From Candidatus Altiarchaeales archaeon (GTDB lineage: Archaea > Altiarchaeota > Altiarchaeia > IMC4 > QMZM01), in NCBI GenBank assembly GCA_023252215.1, contig JAHEXG010000003.1:1-60131 (forward strand): DNA of 60,131 nucleotides, written 5' to 3'. Of the stretch, positions 875 to 38,978 are shown one piece after another. The position numbers and the translations under genes are program-made. The notes beneath the pieces are model-generated. The model saw only the letters and a list, made by a program, of their open reading frames with translations. It had not been told where the DNA came from and did no database searches. The stretch's first letter is position 1; each line of letters opens with the position of its first letter.

Positions 875-1076
875 TACGGAAAAGAAAGGAAAGGGGAATT
901 GCCTTTAAGGCAATCCAGTCACGCTTAACCAGATATTCGATCTAATCAGTGCTGTCGAGCAAGAGCGAATGAGCGATTTGTCGCTCATGCACCAAAGTTG
1001 CAAGCACCCGCGGGGAGGATCAGGTGCCCGAAGGTGCCCTCAATGGGTATGCCAATTAAGCACATGAAAGCGTCAC

Positions 1077-1114
1077 TTTCAAAACTGGGTGGTTGAAAAC
1101 CACGCGGTTTGGTG
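1077..1114 (+). repeat. HP-1 imperfect hairpin element, copy 1
   Basis: TTTCAAAACTGG-GTGGTT-GAA-AACCAC-GCGGTTTGGTG. Same flanks as the copies at 5970, 25869 and 38914. Confidence 0.8.
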
Positions 1115-1139
1115 TAGGGTTCAAATCCCTTCGTATTCA
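1115..1139 (+). pseudogene. Decayed duplicate of the tRNA-Trp 3' end (T-arm + acceptor strand)
   Basis: TAGGGTTCAAATCCCTTCGTATTCA versus the genuine GAGGGTTCAAATCCCTCCGTCCCCA (828-852), 20/25 identical. No matching 5' acceptor strand was found. Confidence 0.6.
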
Positions 1140-3304: not shown

Positions 3305-3826
3305 ATGAAAACCTTAATAGTATATTACTCCGGCACCGGCAGCAACAAAGCCCTTGCCGAAGACATGGCAAAAAGGATGAATGCCGATATCGAAGGCCTC
3401 GGCGGAGGCGGAACCATCGAAGGTATGGGCATTGCCGTCACTGCGTTCAAGTCGTTCATTGGCTTGGGTTCAGGCATCGGTAAATTAAAATACGATCCAA
3501 GCGGTTATGATCTTGTGGTCCTTGTTTCGCCTGTTTATGCAATGGGTGTCCCTCCTCAGATGAATGCGTATCTTAGCCGTTTCAAGGGCAAGATAAAGAA
3601 AGCAGCAATTGCATCAGTTTCGGGTTCCGGGAATAACCCTAAGGCTATGGCGAAGATGGAAAAGCTCGCGGGCGGTAAGGCAGTGGCTGTTCTTCAGCTG
3701 AAGGGCTTGGAGGACAAATCAGGGCCAAAGAAGGGCTTCCAGAAGCTCACCGCGCAAGATCTCGGAAAACCGGAATACGGGGAAAAGATCGATGCCTTCG
3801 TCCGGGCGGTTCAAAAGGGTCTTTGA
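3305..3826 (+). CDS. Flavodoxin-like fold protein
   Basis: N-terminus MKTLIVYYSGTGSNKALAEDMA is typical of flavodoxin-family proteins. Confidence 0.55.
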   Translation: MKTLIVYYSGTGSNKALAEDMAKRMNADIEGLGGGGTIEGMGIAVTAFKSFIGLGSGIGKLKYDPSGYDLVVLVSPVYAMGVPPQMNAYLSRFKGKIKKAAIASVSGSGNNPKAMAKMEKLAGGKAVAVLQLKGLEDKSGPKKGFQKLTAQDLGKPEYGEKIDAFVRAVQKGL

Positions 3827-5895: not shown

Positions 5896-5969
5896 TCTAT
5901 TAGCCGTCAGCATTGTCTTCGCTTCGCTCGACAGCAATCGGGGGGGAGGGTCAGGATGAACGGCGCAGC

Positions 5970-6010
5970 CTTTCAAAACTGGGTGGTTGAACTCAACCAC
6001 TCGGTTTGGT
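5970..6010 (+). repeat. HP-1 imperfect hairpin element, copy 2
   Basis: TTTCAAAACTGG-GTGGTTG-AACT-CAACCAC-TCGGTTTGGTG, 75 nt after the thiE stop. Confidence 0.8.
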
Positions 6011-25446: not shown

Positions 25447-25845
25447 ATGAAAGGATTAGCTTCTTACTGGAGATTGATTCCTCAAAGGTATAACCTTATT
25501 GGAACCGAGTGCAATCACTGCAAGCAAAAGTTCTTCCCTCCGAGGAAGATATGCCCCACCTGTAGACGGCATGGGGAGATAAAGAGCTATAAATTCAAAG
25601 GCGTTGGAGAGATTTACTCGTACACCGTAATACATGCTGCGCCCGATGGGTTCGAGTTTCAGAAGCCTTACGCGCTAGGGCTCATAAGGTTGGTCGAAGG
25701 ACCTCTTGTGACTGCGCAGATCGTGGACTGTAAGCCGGACGAAGTAGAAGTTGGGAAGAAAGTGGAAATGGTTTTTAGGAAGATTTTTGCCGGTGGGAAG
25801 GAAGGGACTATCCGGTATGGATATAAGTTTAAGTTGGTTGACTGA
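25447..25845 (+). CDS. DUF35 OB-fold/Zn-ribbon protein (scaffold of the thiolase/HMGCS complex)
   Basis: CNHCKQKFFPPRKICPTC...YSYTVIH...GLIRLVEGP. ATG lies 1 nt after the thiolase stop. Confidence 0.8.
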   Translation: MKGLASYWRLIPQRYNLIGTECNHCKQKFFPPRKICPTCRRHGEIKSYKFKGVGEIYSYTVIHAAPDGFEFQKPYALGLIRLVEGPLVTAQIVDCKPDEVEVGKKVEMVFRKIFAGGKEGTIRYGYKFKLVD

Positions 25846-25868
25846 TTATTTGTTTTCTTCTATTGGCC

Positions 25869-25908
25869 TTTCAAAACTGGGTGGTTGAACTCAACCACGC
25901 GGTTCGGG
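25869..25908 (+). repeat. HP-1 imperfect hairpin element, copy 3
   Basis: TTTCAAAACTGG-GTGGTTG-AACT-CAACCAC-GCGGTTCGGG, 23 nt after the DUF35 stop. Confidence 0.8.
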
Positions 25909-25911
25909 CGG

Positions 25912-25951
25912 GAAGGGACTATCAGGTACGGCTGCAAATGGGGTGCTTGAG
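25912..25951 (+). pseudogene. Second, divergent copy of the DUF35 gene 3' end
   Basis: GAAGGGACTATCAGGTACGGCTGCAAATGGGGTGCTTGA (EGTIRYGCKWGA*) versus the genuine 25801-25845 (EGTIRYGYKFKLVD*). The three differences in the first 7 codons are all synonymous. Confidence 0.65.
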
Positions 25952-25974: not shown

Positions 25975-28218
25975 TTAGTCTTCAGCCCGGTTTGGGGCGG
26001 GGTTGTTGGGTATTGTTATTAGTCTGAATTGGTTTATTGAGTTGTTCGGTAAGGCTTTTTCTTCATTCATCTGGTTGCTCATTATGGTTGGTCCACTGCC
26101 TGCCCATGCGTTTATCAGAGCTATTACTTCTTGTAGGGTGGCTTGTCCGGTGCTCCATTTGTTTATGATGGCAACTATCTCTGCTATGGATATGTCTGCG
26201 CATGGTGGATAGTCTCCGACGAGGTTGCATTCTCCTTGTGTGGTTGTGGTGGTTGTGGACGTGGTAGTTGTCGTGTTTATGAGTGTGGTGGTCGTGACTC
26301 CGTATTTGTTGCTTAGCGGCATGTAGTCTATGTTTATCGAATTGAGTTCTAGGGGAACGTCGCAGAATCCGTTTCCGTCTGCGTCTACGCAGGTCTCGGA
26401 GTATCCGGTCCCGTTATAGTTCGCCCAGTAGTTTCCGGCGACCTGGGTTCCCTGTGAGTAGATCCTGGTTCCTGTTTGCATTGTTGTGTTCCAGTCATTT
26501 GATTCGTTTACATCTTGCATTATGGAGTTGCTGTTAGAGTTATTGAAGTAGTTATTGTATATGGTGTTGTCCGCGGAGTCGTAAACCCATATGCCTGTAG
26601 CGTTGTTCCCTGTGATCTTGGAGCCCGTTACGGTGTTTGAGTCGCTTCGGTCTATGACGAAGCCGCTGTCGTTATTGTCTTTTGTTGTTATGTTGTTTAG
26701 CGTGTTGCTGTTGCTACCGGATATGTATATGCCTGAGAAATTGTTTACGTTTGTCGTTATGTTGTTTAATGTGTTGTTGCCGCTGTTGTACACGTATACT
26801 CCTGAGAAATTGTTTGCGTATGTTGTTGCGTTGCTTACCTTGTTGTTGTCGCTGTAGTACAGGTATATCCCCTGTTGTCCGTTGTCGTGTGTTTCTATTC
26901 CGTTCAGGGTGTTGTTGTCGCTGTTGTCGATCAGTACTCCGTGGCTGTCTTGCATGTCGTGTGAGACTGTGCCGGTTATTATGTTGCCTGATGAATTCCA
27001 CAGGTCCAGTCCGAATGATTCGCAGCCTATTGTGGTGAGGTCTCTTACTGTGTTTTCATTGCTTTCTTCTATTACTAATCCGCTGTAGTTTTCGTCTCTT
27101 GTCGTTATGTTGTTTAATGCGTTGTTGCCGCTCTTGTACAGGTATATTCCTGAGAAGTTGTTTCCGTGTGTTGTTGCGTTGTTTACCTTGTTGTTGTCGC
27201 TGTAGTACAGGTATATTCCCTCTTCTCCGTTGTCGTATGAATCTATTCCGTTCAGGGTGTTGTTGTCGCTGTTGCTGAGCACTACTCCGTGGCTGTCTTT
27301 CGTATCGTGTGAGATTACGCCGTATATTGTATTTCCTATCGCATTCAGCAGAGTCAGCCCAAAGGATTTGGTGCCTGTCGTTTTAACGTCTCTTAGGGTG
27401 TTTGTGTCGCTTAGGTATACCATGATCCCGGTGTAATTTTCATCTCTTGTCGTTATGTTGTTCAGCGTGTTGTTGTGGCTGTTGTAGAGATACACGCCTG
27501 AGTCGTTGTTTGAGTATGTTGTTGCGTTGGTTATAATGTTGTTGTCGCTGTAGTACAGGTATACTCCCTCATACACGTTGTTGTATGCCGTTATGTTATC
27601 TAGCGTGTTGTTATCGGAGTCTTCCACTATGAATCCGTGGGAGTTTCCTGTGTTGTCATACGATGACGAGTCCGTTATTGTGGTGTATGAGGCGTTCCAT
27701 AGGTCGAAGCCGAAGGAATTGCAGTTCTTTATTGTGACGTTTTTGATTACGCTTCTTGAGGAGTTCCAGATGATGAAGGCGTAGGACTGCGATCCTGTGA
27801 CCGTTACGTTGTATGCCTTGTTGTTTCTGCCTTCGTATATGCCTAGGCCGTAACCGCCGCTTGAGCTGGATTCCGAGTTCTGGAAGGTATTGTCGTCTCC
27901 GTGTATTGACATTATGCCGTAGTACCAGTCAGTCGTTATGCAGTTTTTGACCATGACTCCTGATACGCCGTTTATTATCACTCCGTAGGTGTCGCTTAGG
28001 TTTAGGCCGTTTATGTGGTGTTGTGCGCAGTTCAGAGTCACGTTATTTGCGAGGATGCTCATACATTCCGTTGCCGGAGAGGCCAGGATGTCCGATGTCA
28101 GGGTATATGTCTCTCCTGTTATGTTGAGGTTTGCGCAGTTGTTTATGTCTATTCCAGCGGCTGCGGCAAAGGTTATTGTCTGCATCAGAAACAAAAGGAT
28201 AAGTGTGTGTTTTCTCAT
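25975..28218 (-). CDS. Secreted right-handed beta-helix (PbH1/NosD-like) surface protein with a poly-Thr linker and a dockerin-like C-terminal module
   Basis: Signal peptide. Dozens of periods of about 22 aa (NNTLNNITT.., SGIYLY..). The TTTTTSTTTTTT linker is followed by DISIAEIVAIINKW / ATLQEVIALINAW. Confidence 0.75.
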   Translation of the reverse strand: MRKHTLILLFLMQTITFAAAAGIDINNCANLNITGETYTLTSDILASPATECMSILANNVTLNCAQHHINGLNLSDTYGVIINGVSGVMVKNCITTDWYYGIMSIHGDDNTFQNSESSSSGGYGLGIYEGRNNKAYNVTVTGSQSYAFIIWNSSRSVIKNVTIKNCNSFGFDLWNASYTTITDSSSYDNTGNSHGFIVEDSDNNTLDNITAYNNVYEGVYLYYSDNNIITNATTYSNNDSGVYLYNSHNNTLNNITTRDENYTGIMVYLSDTNTLRDVKTTGTKSFGLTLLNAIGNTIYGVISHDTKDSHGVVLSNSDNNTLNGIDSYDNGEEGIYLYYSDNNKVNNATTHGNNFSGIYLYKSGNNALNNITTRDENYSGLVIEESNENTVRDLTTIGCESFGLDLWNSSGNIITGTVSHDMQDSHGVLIDNSDNNTLNGIETHDNGQQGIYLYYSDNNKVSNATTYANNFSGVYVYNSGNNTLNNITTNVNNFSGIYISGSNSNTLNNITTKDNNDSGFVIDRSDSNTVTGSKITGNNATGIWVYDSADNTIYNNYFNNSNSNSIMQDVNESNDWNTTMQTGTRIYSQGTQVAGNYWANYNGTGYSETCVDADGNGFCDVPLELNSINIDYMPLSNKYGVTTTTLINTTTTTSTTTTTTQGECNLVGDYPPCADISIAEIVAIINKWSTGQATLQEVIALINAWAGSGPTIMSNQMNEEKALPNNSINQFRLITIPNNPAPNRAED
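26540..27800. repeat. Tandem 348-bp (116-aa) repeats inside the beta-helix gene, at least 3 units
   Basis: Three near-identical shadow ORFs start at 26882, 27230 and 27578, exactly 348 nt apart. The DNA aligns by eye at high identity. Confidence 0.8.
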
Positions 28219-38545: not shown

Positions 38546-38646
38546 ATCCCTATCCCTCCCGCTTATTATTTTAACCTCAAACCCCTATCATAGACCATTT
38601 CATTCAACGGAACCGTGGGGTCGAAAGATCCCACGCTGATTCAACC

Positions 38647-38668
38647 GGGACCGTGGGGTAGCTTGTCC
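38647..38668 (+). pseudogene. Isolated copy of the tRNA-Pro 5' end (19 nt identical, 21/22)
   Basis: GGGACCGTGGGGTAGCTTGtCC versus the genuine 38752-38773. Followed by a trailer-like hairpin instead of the rest of a tRNA. Confidence 0.65.
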
Positions 38669-38751
38669 AGAACTCTCCCAAAGGGATGGTTTCATCCCCA
38701 AAAGAAAATTAAATTATAGAAACAATAAAAAATTTAATAAAATTCATTAAT

Positions 38752-38825
38752 GGGACCGTGGGGTAGCTTGGCCATCCTTCTAGCTTGGGGTGCTAGAAAC
38801 CTGTGTTCAAATCACAGCGGTCCCA
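38752..38825 (+). tRNA. tRNA-Pro (GGG)
   Basis: GGGACCG/CGGTCCC acceptor, anticodon arm CTAGC-TTGGGGT-GCTAG, T-arm CTGTG-TTCAAAT-CACAG. Confidence 0.85.
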
Positions 38826-38913
38826 TAGGAATCCCCCTCAAGGGATTATTCCATTCCCAAAAGAAAAGACAATGGGGTCTAAAGACCCCCCGTGGGGTGG
38901 GTCAGGATTAACC

Positions 38914-38952
38914 TAAAACTGGGGAGGGGCAAAGCCCCTCCGCGGTTTGGAG
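38914..38952 (+). repeat. HP-1 imperfect hairpin element, copy 4 (upper stem fully compensated)
   Basis: TAAAACTGG-GGAGGGGC-AAA-GCCCCTCC-GCGGTTTGGAG. Confidence 0.8.
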
Positions 38953-38978
38953 CTGTGTTCAAATCACAGCGGTCCCAT
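38953..38978 (+). repeat. Exact 26-nt copy of the tRNA-Pro 3' end
   Basis: CTGTGTTCAAATCACAGCGGTCCCAT is identical to 38801-38826. Confidence 0.9.

Follow-up and report, generated by a model that had tools for sequence, protein, structure and literature searches.

How does a gene come to have its 3' end twice, once where it is translated and once more behind a hairpin a short way downstream? The question is raised by a DUF35 gene of a Candidatus Altiarchaeales archaeon, which lies on a stretch of 60,131 nt that was analysed as a whole and is called the window here. The initial annotation had observed the end of this gene on both sides of a hairpin, HP-1, with only synonymous differences between the two versions, and had suggested that an incoming element brought its own version of the target end, as attP-bearing integrative elements do. 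The features on which the following analysis rests are collected in Table 1.

Table 1. Positions in the window of the DUF35 site, of the four copies of the E element (A-D) and of their flanking repeats
Feature	Position	Strand	Basis or remarks
E copy D	1009..1113	+	Hairpin core 1081-1113; 3' of a probably intron-containing tRNA (693-852)
Repeat pair of copy D	L 829-847, R 1116-1134		AGGGTTCAAATCCCTyCGT, tRNA T arm; 0/2000 shuffles as good
E copy A	5942..6010	+	Full-length core, 46 nt downstream of thiE; covariance model
DUF35 gene	25447..25845	+	ORF list; Pfam PF12172 + PF01796; orthologues in Altiarchaeota
Upstream repeat copy L (copy 1)	25800..25845	+	Working DUF35 end, GGAAGGGACTATCCGGTATGG..TGA, peptide EGTIRYGYKFKLVD*
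T-rich spacer	25846..25865 (20 nt)	+	ttatttgttttcttctattg, from the DUF35 stop codon to the element
HP-1, E copy B	25866..25908	+	Inverted repeat; covariance model; shared with copy A from 25866
Downstream repeat copy R (copy 2)	25911..25950	+	Untranslated, partly degraded DUF35 end, EGTIRYGCKWGA*
NosD/beta-helix gene	25975..28218	-	Convergent; bounds the DUF35 site
E copy C	38893..38951	+	After tRNA-Pro; best family-model match (77 bits); 5' modules 38827-38892
Repeat pair of copy C	L 38801-38826, R 38953-38978		L from T arm to 3' end of tRNA-Pro; 26/26 identical

The DUF35 gene end and its second copy

The DUF35 protein is composed of the domains zf-ChsH2 and OB_ChsH2_C (Pfam), and its gene is the last of a trio with HMG-CoA synthase and thiolase. 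Its closest relatives are found in Altiarchaeia MAGs, with up to 92-95% amino-acid identity, and all of them share the C-terminal peptide, so that copy 1, also given as GGAAGGGACTATCCGGTATGGATATAAG..TGA, is the true and native end of the gene, as had been proposed from the window alone. Copy 2 has the nucleotides GGAAGGGACTATCAGGTACGGCTGCAAATGGGGTGCTTGA, with its TGA at 25948-25950, and starts 66 nt past the DUF35 stop codon and 2-3 nt past HP-1, whose hairpin arms occupy 25875-25888 and 25891-25904 and whose 3' terminus reads ..CGCGGTTCGGG. The initial 13 nt of the two copies are identical, 19 of 21 nt match, and the stop codons align if a gap of 6 nt is allowed. This 21-nt tail motif has two sites in the window, namely the two copies, where 0.01 matches would be expected by chance, and the alignment of the DUF35 tail with the sequence behind the element is better than 2000 of 2000 shuffles. 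Because an independent assembly (L031) is identical over the DUF35/HP-1 region, the doubled end is not an assembly artefact; an artefact is further rejected by the length of the repeat, which is shorter than assembler k-mers, and by analogous structures in relatives. Another public contig with an identical DUF35 gene (L032) ends, at 1991, in the middle of the HP-1 hairpin, which is consistent with assembly breaks at a dispersed repeat.

The claim that the copies differ only synonymously stands for the seven starting codons (3 differences, 3/3 synonymous); it does not extend to all nine ungapped codons, which hold 4 synonymous and 1 non-synonymous differences, nor beyond them, where copy 2 is degraded (CKWGA*). 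Of the other neighbours, a T-rich stretch similar to the spacer precedes the element at the same DUF35 site in L001, L198, L034 and L036. The convergent NosD/beta-helix gene encodes a protein of 747 aa with a Thr-rich linker, whose C-terminal extension passes ..EVIALINAW.., where the orthologues of L001 and L033 stop; the 3' ends of both convergent genes are therefore variable here.

Anatomy and distribution of the E element

HP-1 is a 5'-truncated copy of a structured element of ~60 nt, which we call E (GGGGAGGGTCAGGA..AAACUGG-helix-CGCGGUUYRGG) and which was traced from HP-1, from copy A beside thiE and from related elements at the DUF35 site of L001 and L036. The consensus comprises, in this order, GGGGAGGGUCAGGA, a short variable hairpin, AAAC and the main hairpin. 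The base of the main hairpin, AACUG/CGGUU, is invariant, including a U-G pair, and is followed by a G.G mismatch and a closing helix; the helix covaries freely, with pairing kept in at least three fully compensated versions (GGAGGGG/CCCCUCC, GUGGUUGA/UCAACCAC and GUGCCGG/CCGGCAC). An all-against-all BLAST of ~100 copies gives a sharp 3' end, with similarity stopping within 0-1 nt of ..CGGTTYRG(G), and a 5' limit of the core 23-26 nt before AACTGG. The 5' modules are longer in some subfamilies, and stretches that are T-rich or form a hairpin can be added 5' of the core; the DNA inserted between the repeats amounts to about 60-190 nt.

A scan with a degenerate pattern found 24 archaeal loci, mostly in Micrarchaeota, together with Altiarchaeota and one Iainarchaeum, and two additional matches in high-GC bacteria that were judged to be chance. 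A second pattern scan gave at least 117 loci outside the window and added Woesearchaeota and other DPANN MAGs, which makes the known distribution of E mostly Micrarchaeota, and also Altiarchaeota, Iainarchaeota, Woesearchaeota and other DPANN archaea. The exact hairpin of the window has no match in GTDB representatives, and the GTGGTT subtype of the helix occurs in two other genomes only. Rfam, run on the whole window at the gathering threshold, reports tRNAs only and has no family for E; the best sub-threshold matches that it gives near copies A, B and C with a limit of E<=10 are noise. Since a search of the searchable literature by topic and by conserved motif likewise returned no description, the element is apparently undescribed so far; the element of a 2012 paper on tRNA disruption in Caldiarchaeum was considered and is not E, being 1.8 kb long and recombinase-encoding. 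No viral carrier was found, three E patterns giving 0 matches in IMG/VR. Around the E copies themselves (~94 loci), no recurrent ORF or protein family and no reverse transcriptase lies within 3 kb; among the neighbours in the window Pfam detects neither an integrase nor a reverse transcriptase. An autonomous parent element was not found either, there being no upstream repeat copy further than ~200 nt away.

Overall, E shows no preferred orientation relative to neighbouring genes. A tRNA gene lies within 260 nt of 22 of 100 copies, and eight copies directly abut a tRNA end: the 3' terminal GGG of E overlaps or abuts it (0-3 nt) at minus-strand tRNAs in L079, L080, L086, L093 and L145 and at plus-strand tRNAs in L157, L159 and L188. 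The plus-strand tRNAs have no room for a promoter of their own, so they are presumably co-transcribed with E and freed by RNase P. E also occurs in tandem arrays with a conserved unit of 75-245 nt between the elements (L183 6250-6560, L064 800-990, L071 100-260, L086, and L124 480-700), the array of L183 consisting of two perfect 127-nt units before an assembly gap; this suggests repeated insertion at one spot or slippage at the hairpin.

The four copies in the window

Run on the window, a covariance model of E (R1) finds four copies, A to D. HP-1, or copy B, is matched at 25873-25908 with 30.8 bits (E=1e-6), and the match includes the AACUG/CGGUU stem base and the 3' terminus, which makes HP-1 a member of the family; it covers model positions 23-59 only, and copy B is therefore 5'-truncated. 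Copy D matches the same model positions, and copy A has an additional 5' motif, GGGGGAGGGTCAGGA, that HP-1 lacks. Copies B, C and D each have a significant flanking repeat (0/2000 shuffles as good), whereas copy A has none that is significant (p about 0.05), and its similarity to the tail of thiE was rejected on that account. Three of the four elements in the window thus stand before a displaced gene or tRNA end, as do 26 of 93 elsewhere; the initial annotation had proposed to look for such ends at other copies of HP-1.

Some details of these surroundings deserve mention. The tRNA at 693-852 is an Rfam call of 160 nt and 36.6 bits that ARAGORN does not report; it probably contains an intron, and its T arm is the upstream repeat of copy D. 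The interval from tRNA-Ala to tRNA-Pro holds at 38615-38665 a hairpin module, GTGGGGTCGAAAGATCCCAC, without an E core. Such modules precede E in Altiarchaeota, and 3' of this one lies a 19-nt copy of the 5' end of tRNA-Pro (GGGACCGTGGGGTAGCTTG, 38647-38665); module and tRNA fragment together look like the remains of an older insertion. Two sites in the window, 38691-38707 and 38850-38866 (0.08 expected), have the motif TTCATYCCCAAAAGAAA, which is also found 3' of tRNA genes in the Altiarchaeota loci L132, L135, L066 and L075; it belongs to the 5' modules of E.

Filled and empty sites

A cluster of tRNA-Ala, tRNA-Pro and tRNA-Thr is syntenic in the window and in two related loci, L135 and L075. 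In the window the site 3' of tRNA-Ala is empty, with a bare flank (ATCCCTATCC..); in the two relatives the tRNA is followed by a T-rich/hairpin module, E, a copy of the 3' part of the tRNA (AATCCCGACGAGTCCAC) and then the flank of the window. As the same flank stands behind the downstream copy in both, downstream copy and flank are the original arrangement, and module and E are the insertion. The tRNA-Pro site shows the reverse, being filled in the window and without E in L135 and L075.

The DUF35 site itself is polymorphic as well. It is filled in the window and in L001, L034, L036, L193-195 and L198, the E and the downstream copy of L193 being degraded. The search for genomes with a single copy of the gene end, which the initial annotation had proposed as a check, found L190-192 (95% amino-acid identity), L196/197 (91%) and L033 (93%), all of them without HP-1 or any other element and with a short spacer behind the one gene end. 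An alignment of the window with the empty intergenic region of L190, asking which flank is native, met strongly diverged spacers. In L198 the segment TATGGTTATAAGTTTAAGTTGGTTGATTGA is present twice, 30/30 identical, around ttcttttttcttatacttgta, a hairpin and E; this insertion is a young case. The distance from the right junction to the end of the stop codon is about 41 nt in the window, 24 in L001, 30 in L198 and 81 in L034 and L036. With at least four different right junctions and two subtypes of E among the filled sites, the DUF35 end has been hit several times.

Where lineages share a junction (L034/L036 and L135/L075), both repeat copies resemble their own host lineage and not each other. 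The downstream copy of L001, on the other hand, is closer to the tail of the empty site in L033 than to the upstream copy of L001. Downstream copies decay with age, by a nonsense codon in L001, a frameshift in L034, general degradation in L193 and the CKWGA tail in the window. In L034 a tblastn match of DUF35 is reported as a single stretch of 590 nt (173-762), because the element lies between two copies of the last 81 nt; at loci of this kind automatic annotation can mis-call the gene end.

Taken with the repeats that begin directly at the 3' end of E, these sites support the reading of HP-1 as an insert to which the second gene end is tied. HP-1 is a mobile, non-autonomous element flanked by a duplication, of which the second DUF35 end forms the downstream half, an untranslated relic.

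Flanking repeats across the family

To what extent does this hold for E in general? Alignment of the 300 nt on the upstream side of each copy with the 300 nt on its downstream side gave, for 26 of 93 testable copies (~28%), a repeat that recurs no more than 8 nt from the 3' end of E, and 20 of these repeats are high-scoring. Of 600 control positions within these loci, 2 (0.3%) have such a repeat, none high-scoring. The repeats are 14-153 nt long and many are perfect (L198 30/30, L111 50/50, L187 34/34, L074 and L082 26/26, L097 25/25, L066 20/20); among the longest, those of L183, L105 and L170 are tandem arrays of element and spacer rather than target repeats. The repeated segment can be the tail of a protein gene or its starting codons (L074, L078 and L082), a tRNA from T arm to 3' end, or, on the other strand, the first bases of a tRNA. 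The targets of the core are diverse (DUF35, glutamine synthetase, PEP synthase, an arginase-family protein, phosphoglycerate mutase, many tRNAs and gene starts), and the dozens of them have no core sequence in common.

Direct repeats reconstitute the end of the target gene, and their similarity ends at the gene boundary, whether stop codon (even in the perfect pair of L198), tRNA end or start codon; the left junction lies 0-3 nt past a stop codon or at the tRNA end or start codon. Repeats of tRNAs start at the 5' edge of the T arm. Gene-tail repeats are confined to genes that stand 5' of E in the same orientation (6-7/35 vs 0/40); the minus-strand matches of a symmetric test are artefacts, spurious antisense frames over the same repeats.

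Synonymous differences between the repeat copies

Eight protein-coding pairs were compared codon by codon: those of the window, L001 and L036 (all DUF35), L069, L076 (glutamine synthetase), L087 (PEP synthase), L116 (arginase family) and L144 (phosphoglycerate mutase). They contain 55 synonymous and 9 non-synonymous codon differences (86% synonymous), and their nucleotide differences are distributed over the three codon positions as 15/6/58, whereas randomly placed substitutions are 20% synonymous, 39% at most, with 0 of 20000 trials as extreme as the observation. A ninth pair, L034, has 11 synonymous and 0 non-synonymous differences. All of them follow a point at which the untranslated copy has lost 1 nt, and this copy is therefore not under selection as protein. 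Among the eight, examples are L076, with 19:1 over 50 codons, and L087, with 14:0 over 31 codons, including switches between Ser TCA and AGT and between Leu TTA and CTG. The differences involve all base types.

An in-frame stop codon is kept at the homologous position in 6 of the 8 untranslated copies, and the stops of a pair sometimes differ (TGA/TAG, TGA/TAA, TAG/TGA). In L087 (minus strand, about 3380-3460) the upstream PEP synthase copy has no stop of its own and reads into the element, gaining ~10 residues, and the downstream copy has its own TAG and the normal end, ..KALKRKK*. Several pairs are mosaics that are identical next to the element and then diverge like alleles, the identical stretch measuring 44 nt in L076, 66 in L036 and 13 in the window.

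The bias seen in the first codons of the window thus recurs in a larger sample. From 55:9 across the family it follows that plain decay of a local duplication is rejected for the family and that the differences come from functional alleles; such alleles must be involved in the divergence of the copies, whether imported by recombination or carried by the element. The inference of the initial annotation that random decay is not at work therefore holds for the family, L034 included; for the pair of the window by itself, 3-4 synonymous changes are too small a sample to decide.

How the duplication may have arisen

We give a probability of about one half to a polar insertion that creates the duplication and is followed by homologous recombination, which imports functional alleles. 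E would be a small non-autonomous mobile element that lands at gene boundaries, and upon insertion the target stretch just 5' of it would be present again directly at its 3' end. The upstream copy would remain joined to the gene, keeping it intact, and the downstream copy would remain joined to the old flank, untranslated. The duplication would come about through a polar process set by the 3' end of E, the expected active end, by target-primed copying or end-joining. At least one copy would be overwritten by, or descend from, another functional allele of the same gene, most likely by homologous recombination among diverged lineages in which filled and empty sites co-circulate; mosaics with an identical block beside the element and allele-like divergence up to the stop codon would result. 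Since filled and empty alleles do co-exist, donors for such recombination are available. The predominance of synonymous differences between the copies would then reflect a main source other than point decay. The insertion in the window is an old one, as HP-1 is 5'-truncated and its downstream copy already degraded. What the data show is the family itself, its boundaries and flanking repeats, the filled/empty polymorphism, the synonymous bias and the polarity; the sequence in which things happened, the origin of the bias in recombination and anything that concerns the enzyme are inferred.

Duplication followed by recombination explains the mosaics, the synonymous bias, the tracking of host lineage by both copies and the decay. 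The repeats, however, reach 153 nt, a length that no known target-site duplication approaches. Random staggered cuts also leave three features unexplained, namely the pinning of the left junction to gene and tRNA boundaries, the T-arm start of the tRNA repeats and the polarity of the gene-tail repeats.

These three features fit an element that carries the gene end, and it is here that the closest competitor has its strength. The mobile unit would consist of gene end, T-rich spacer and E, a protein-less miniature integrative element that integrates in the resident gene end by homology or site-specific recombination; the carried copy would become the new working end, and the resident end would be displaced to the 3' side of E. 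Such a unit accounts better than duplication with recombination for the pinned junctions, with repeats whose limit coincides with the stop codon or tRNA end, the young and perfect L198 pair included, for the T-arm start, which is shared with classical integrase sites, and for the strict polarity. It would also agree with the allele-like divergence, with stop codons kept in both copies, with the position of the L001 downstream copy nearer to the empty-site tail of L033 and with the at least four right junctions at one gene end. The attP-like import put forward in the initial annotation was not established, however. No integrase or recurrent ORF is present within 3 kb, there is no larger parent element, and E is absent from IMG/VR; with its 60-190 nt, a single family would have to serve dozens of unrelated sites that share no core sequence; both copies follow the host lineage in L034/L036 and L135/L075; an excised circle of 100-250 bp would be physically awkward; and later homologous recombination of functional alleles explains the synonymous bias equally well. 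We therefore regard the element-borne gene end as a serious but less probable account. The informative differences in the window's own pair are too few to decide between the two.

The remaining explanations together have less than a one-in-five share. For the window alone one could suppose a plain target duplication with ordinary decay, its three synonymous differences being chance: there are only 3-4 informative synonymous changes, the same copy goes on with 4 non-synonymous codons and a 6-nt gap, and the truncated element makes the insertion look old. Yet this is incompatible with the counts of 55:9 and 11:0 and with the drop from perfect to allele-like identity along the repeats of L076 and L036, and we consider it improbable. 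More improbable still is the remnant of a classical integrase-mediated integration (attL/attR) whose body has since been deleted. Direct repeats over the T arm to 3' end of tRNAs and over the 3' ends of protein genes are typical att sites of integrative elements; the same sharp-ended core of ~60 nt, however, recurs at more than 100 sites, never with cargo or integrase, and its repeats also cover gene 5' ends (L074, L078, L082). That downstream copy and hairpin form a functional RNA signal, acting as a terminator or as an alternative C-terminal exon that RNA processing would attach, is very improbable, for the better folding of the hairpin on the + strand, the conserved G-U pairs and the tRNAs that abut E and are presumably co-transcribed are outweighed by the absence of the downstream copy from 95%-identical relatives, by the nonsense codon and frameshift in L001 and L034 and by the non-conserved tail in the window.

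Significance

E is a non-autonomous mobile element whose mechanism may be new. It would be going further, and we do so only tentatively, to see in it a new class of archaeal mobile DNA, either a homology-guided "portable gene end" or the first SINE-like retroposons of archaea. If the former were true, an element without a protein would home, in one lineage after another, into the ends of housekeeping genes and tRNA genes; if the latter, E would be processed out of tRNA or mRNA co-transcripts. Either way, insertion would be made harmless by duplicating or bringing the gene end. DPANN genomes are tiny and densely packed, and nearly any insertion should harm them; E insertions leave the neighbouring gene whole because its end (or start) is present twice. 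A homology-guided or RNA-mediated mechanism would be mobility of a kind not described for archaea. On the practical side, E and its repeats can be used to mark recombination between lineages, and the frequency with which functional alleles are exchanged can be read directly from the allele-like divergence of the copies. The repeats also explain contig breaks and split protein matches such as those met in L032 and L034.

Comparison with known systems

Several known kinds of mobile DNA resemble E in part. A survey reports for Candidatus Altiarchaeum hamiconexum the highest density of MITEs among archaea (PMC11602168), and E is, like a MITE, small, non-coding, dispersed and intergenic; it is not one, as its ends (GGGGAGGGTCAGGA and CGCGGTTYRGG) are not complementary and form no terminal inverted repeats, and its flanking repeats of 14-153 nt are no short duplication of fixed length. 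A diversity-generating retroelement (DGR) is rejected because the substitutions are not adenine-specific and are mostly synonymous (86%), and no reverse transcriptase is nearby. In complex class 1 integrons ISCR1 is associated with a partial duplication of the adjoining 3'-conserved segment. It resembles E in having one defined end and in the adjacent sequence that is co-mobilised and reappears as a partial duplicate through homologous recombination; unlike E, it measures kilobases and has a gene for a rolling-circle transposase.

SINEs and other target-primed retroposons come closer in anatomy. They too are non-autonomous, associated with tRNA genes, sharply bounded at a structured 3' end, subject to truncation at the 5' end and flanked by duplications whose length varies, and E has the corresponding features in its conserved 3' end, in the truncated 5' ends of copies B and D and in its variable duplications. 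What sets E apart is that its small host genomes are not known to encode a reverse transcriptase partner, that it has no A-rich tail, and that its duplications reach 153 nt, with the left junction pinned to gene ends.

In fungal mitochondria, free-standing homing-endonuclease insertions such as that in atp6 of Allomyces bring in a foreign C-terminus and leave the resident 3' end behind as a downstream pseudo-fragment. The portable gene end, the displaced resident end and the coding-like divergence between both are shared with E, although these insertions encode an endonuclease, while E encodes nothing and is 10-20 times smaller. Tyrosine-integrase elements that target tRNA or protein genes carry the 3' end of the target gene in their attP. 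As with E, the repeats run to the gene end, the gene stays intact, a displaced partial copy lies on the far side, tRNA repeats start in the T arm and the copies can be different alleles; unlike these elements, E has neither integrase nor cargo, spans 60-190 nt and uses many unrelated targets, gene starts included. A classical integrative element is thus rejected, having an integrase and one attachment site per family where E has no integrase and many sites. In the way it works, E is nonetheless most like an attP-bearing integrative element or a mitochondrial homing-endonuclease insertion that replaces the C-terminus of its host gene.
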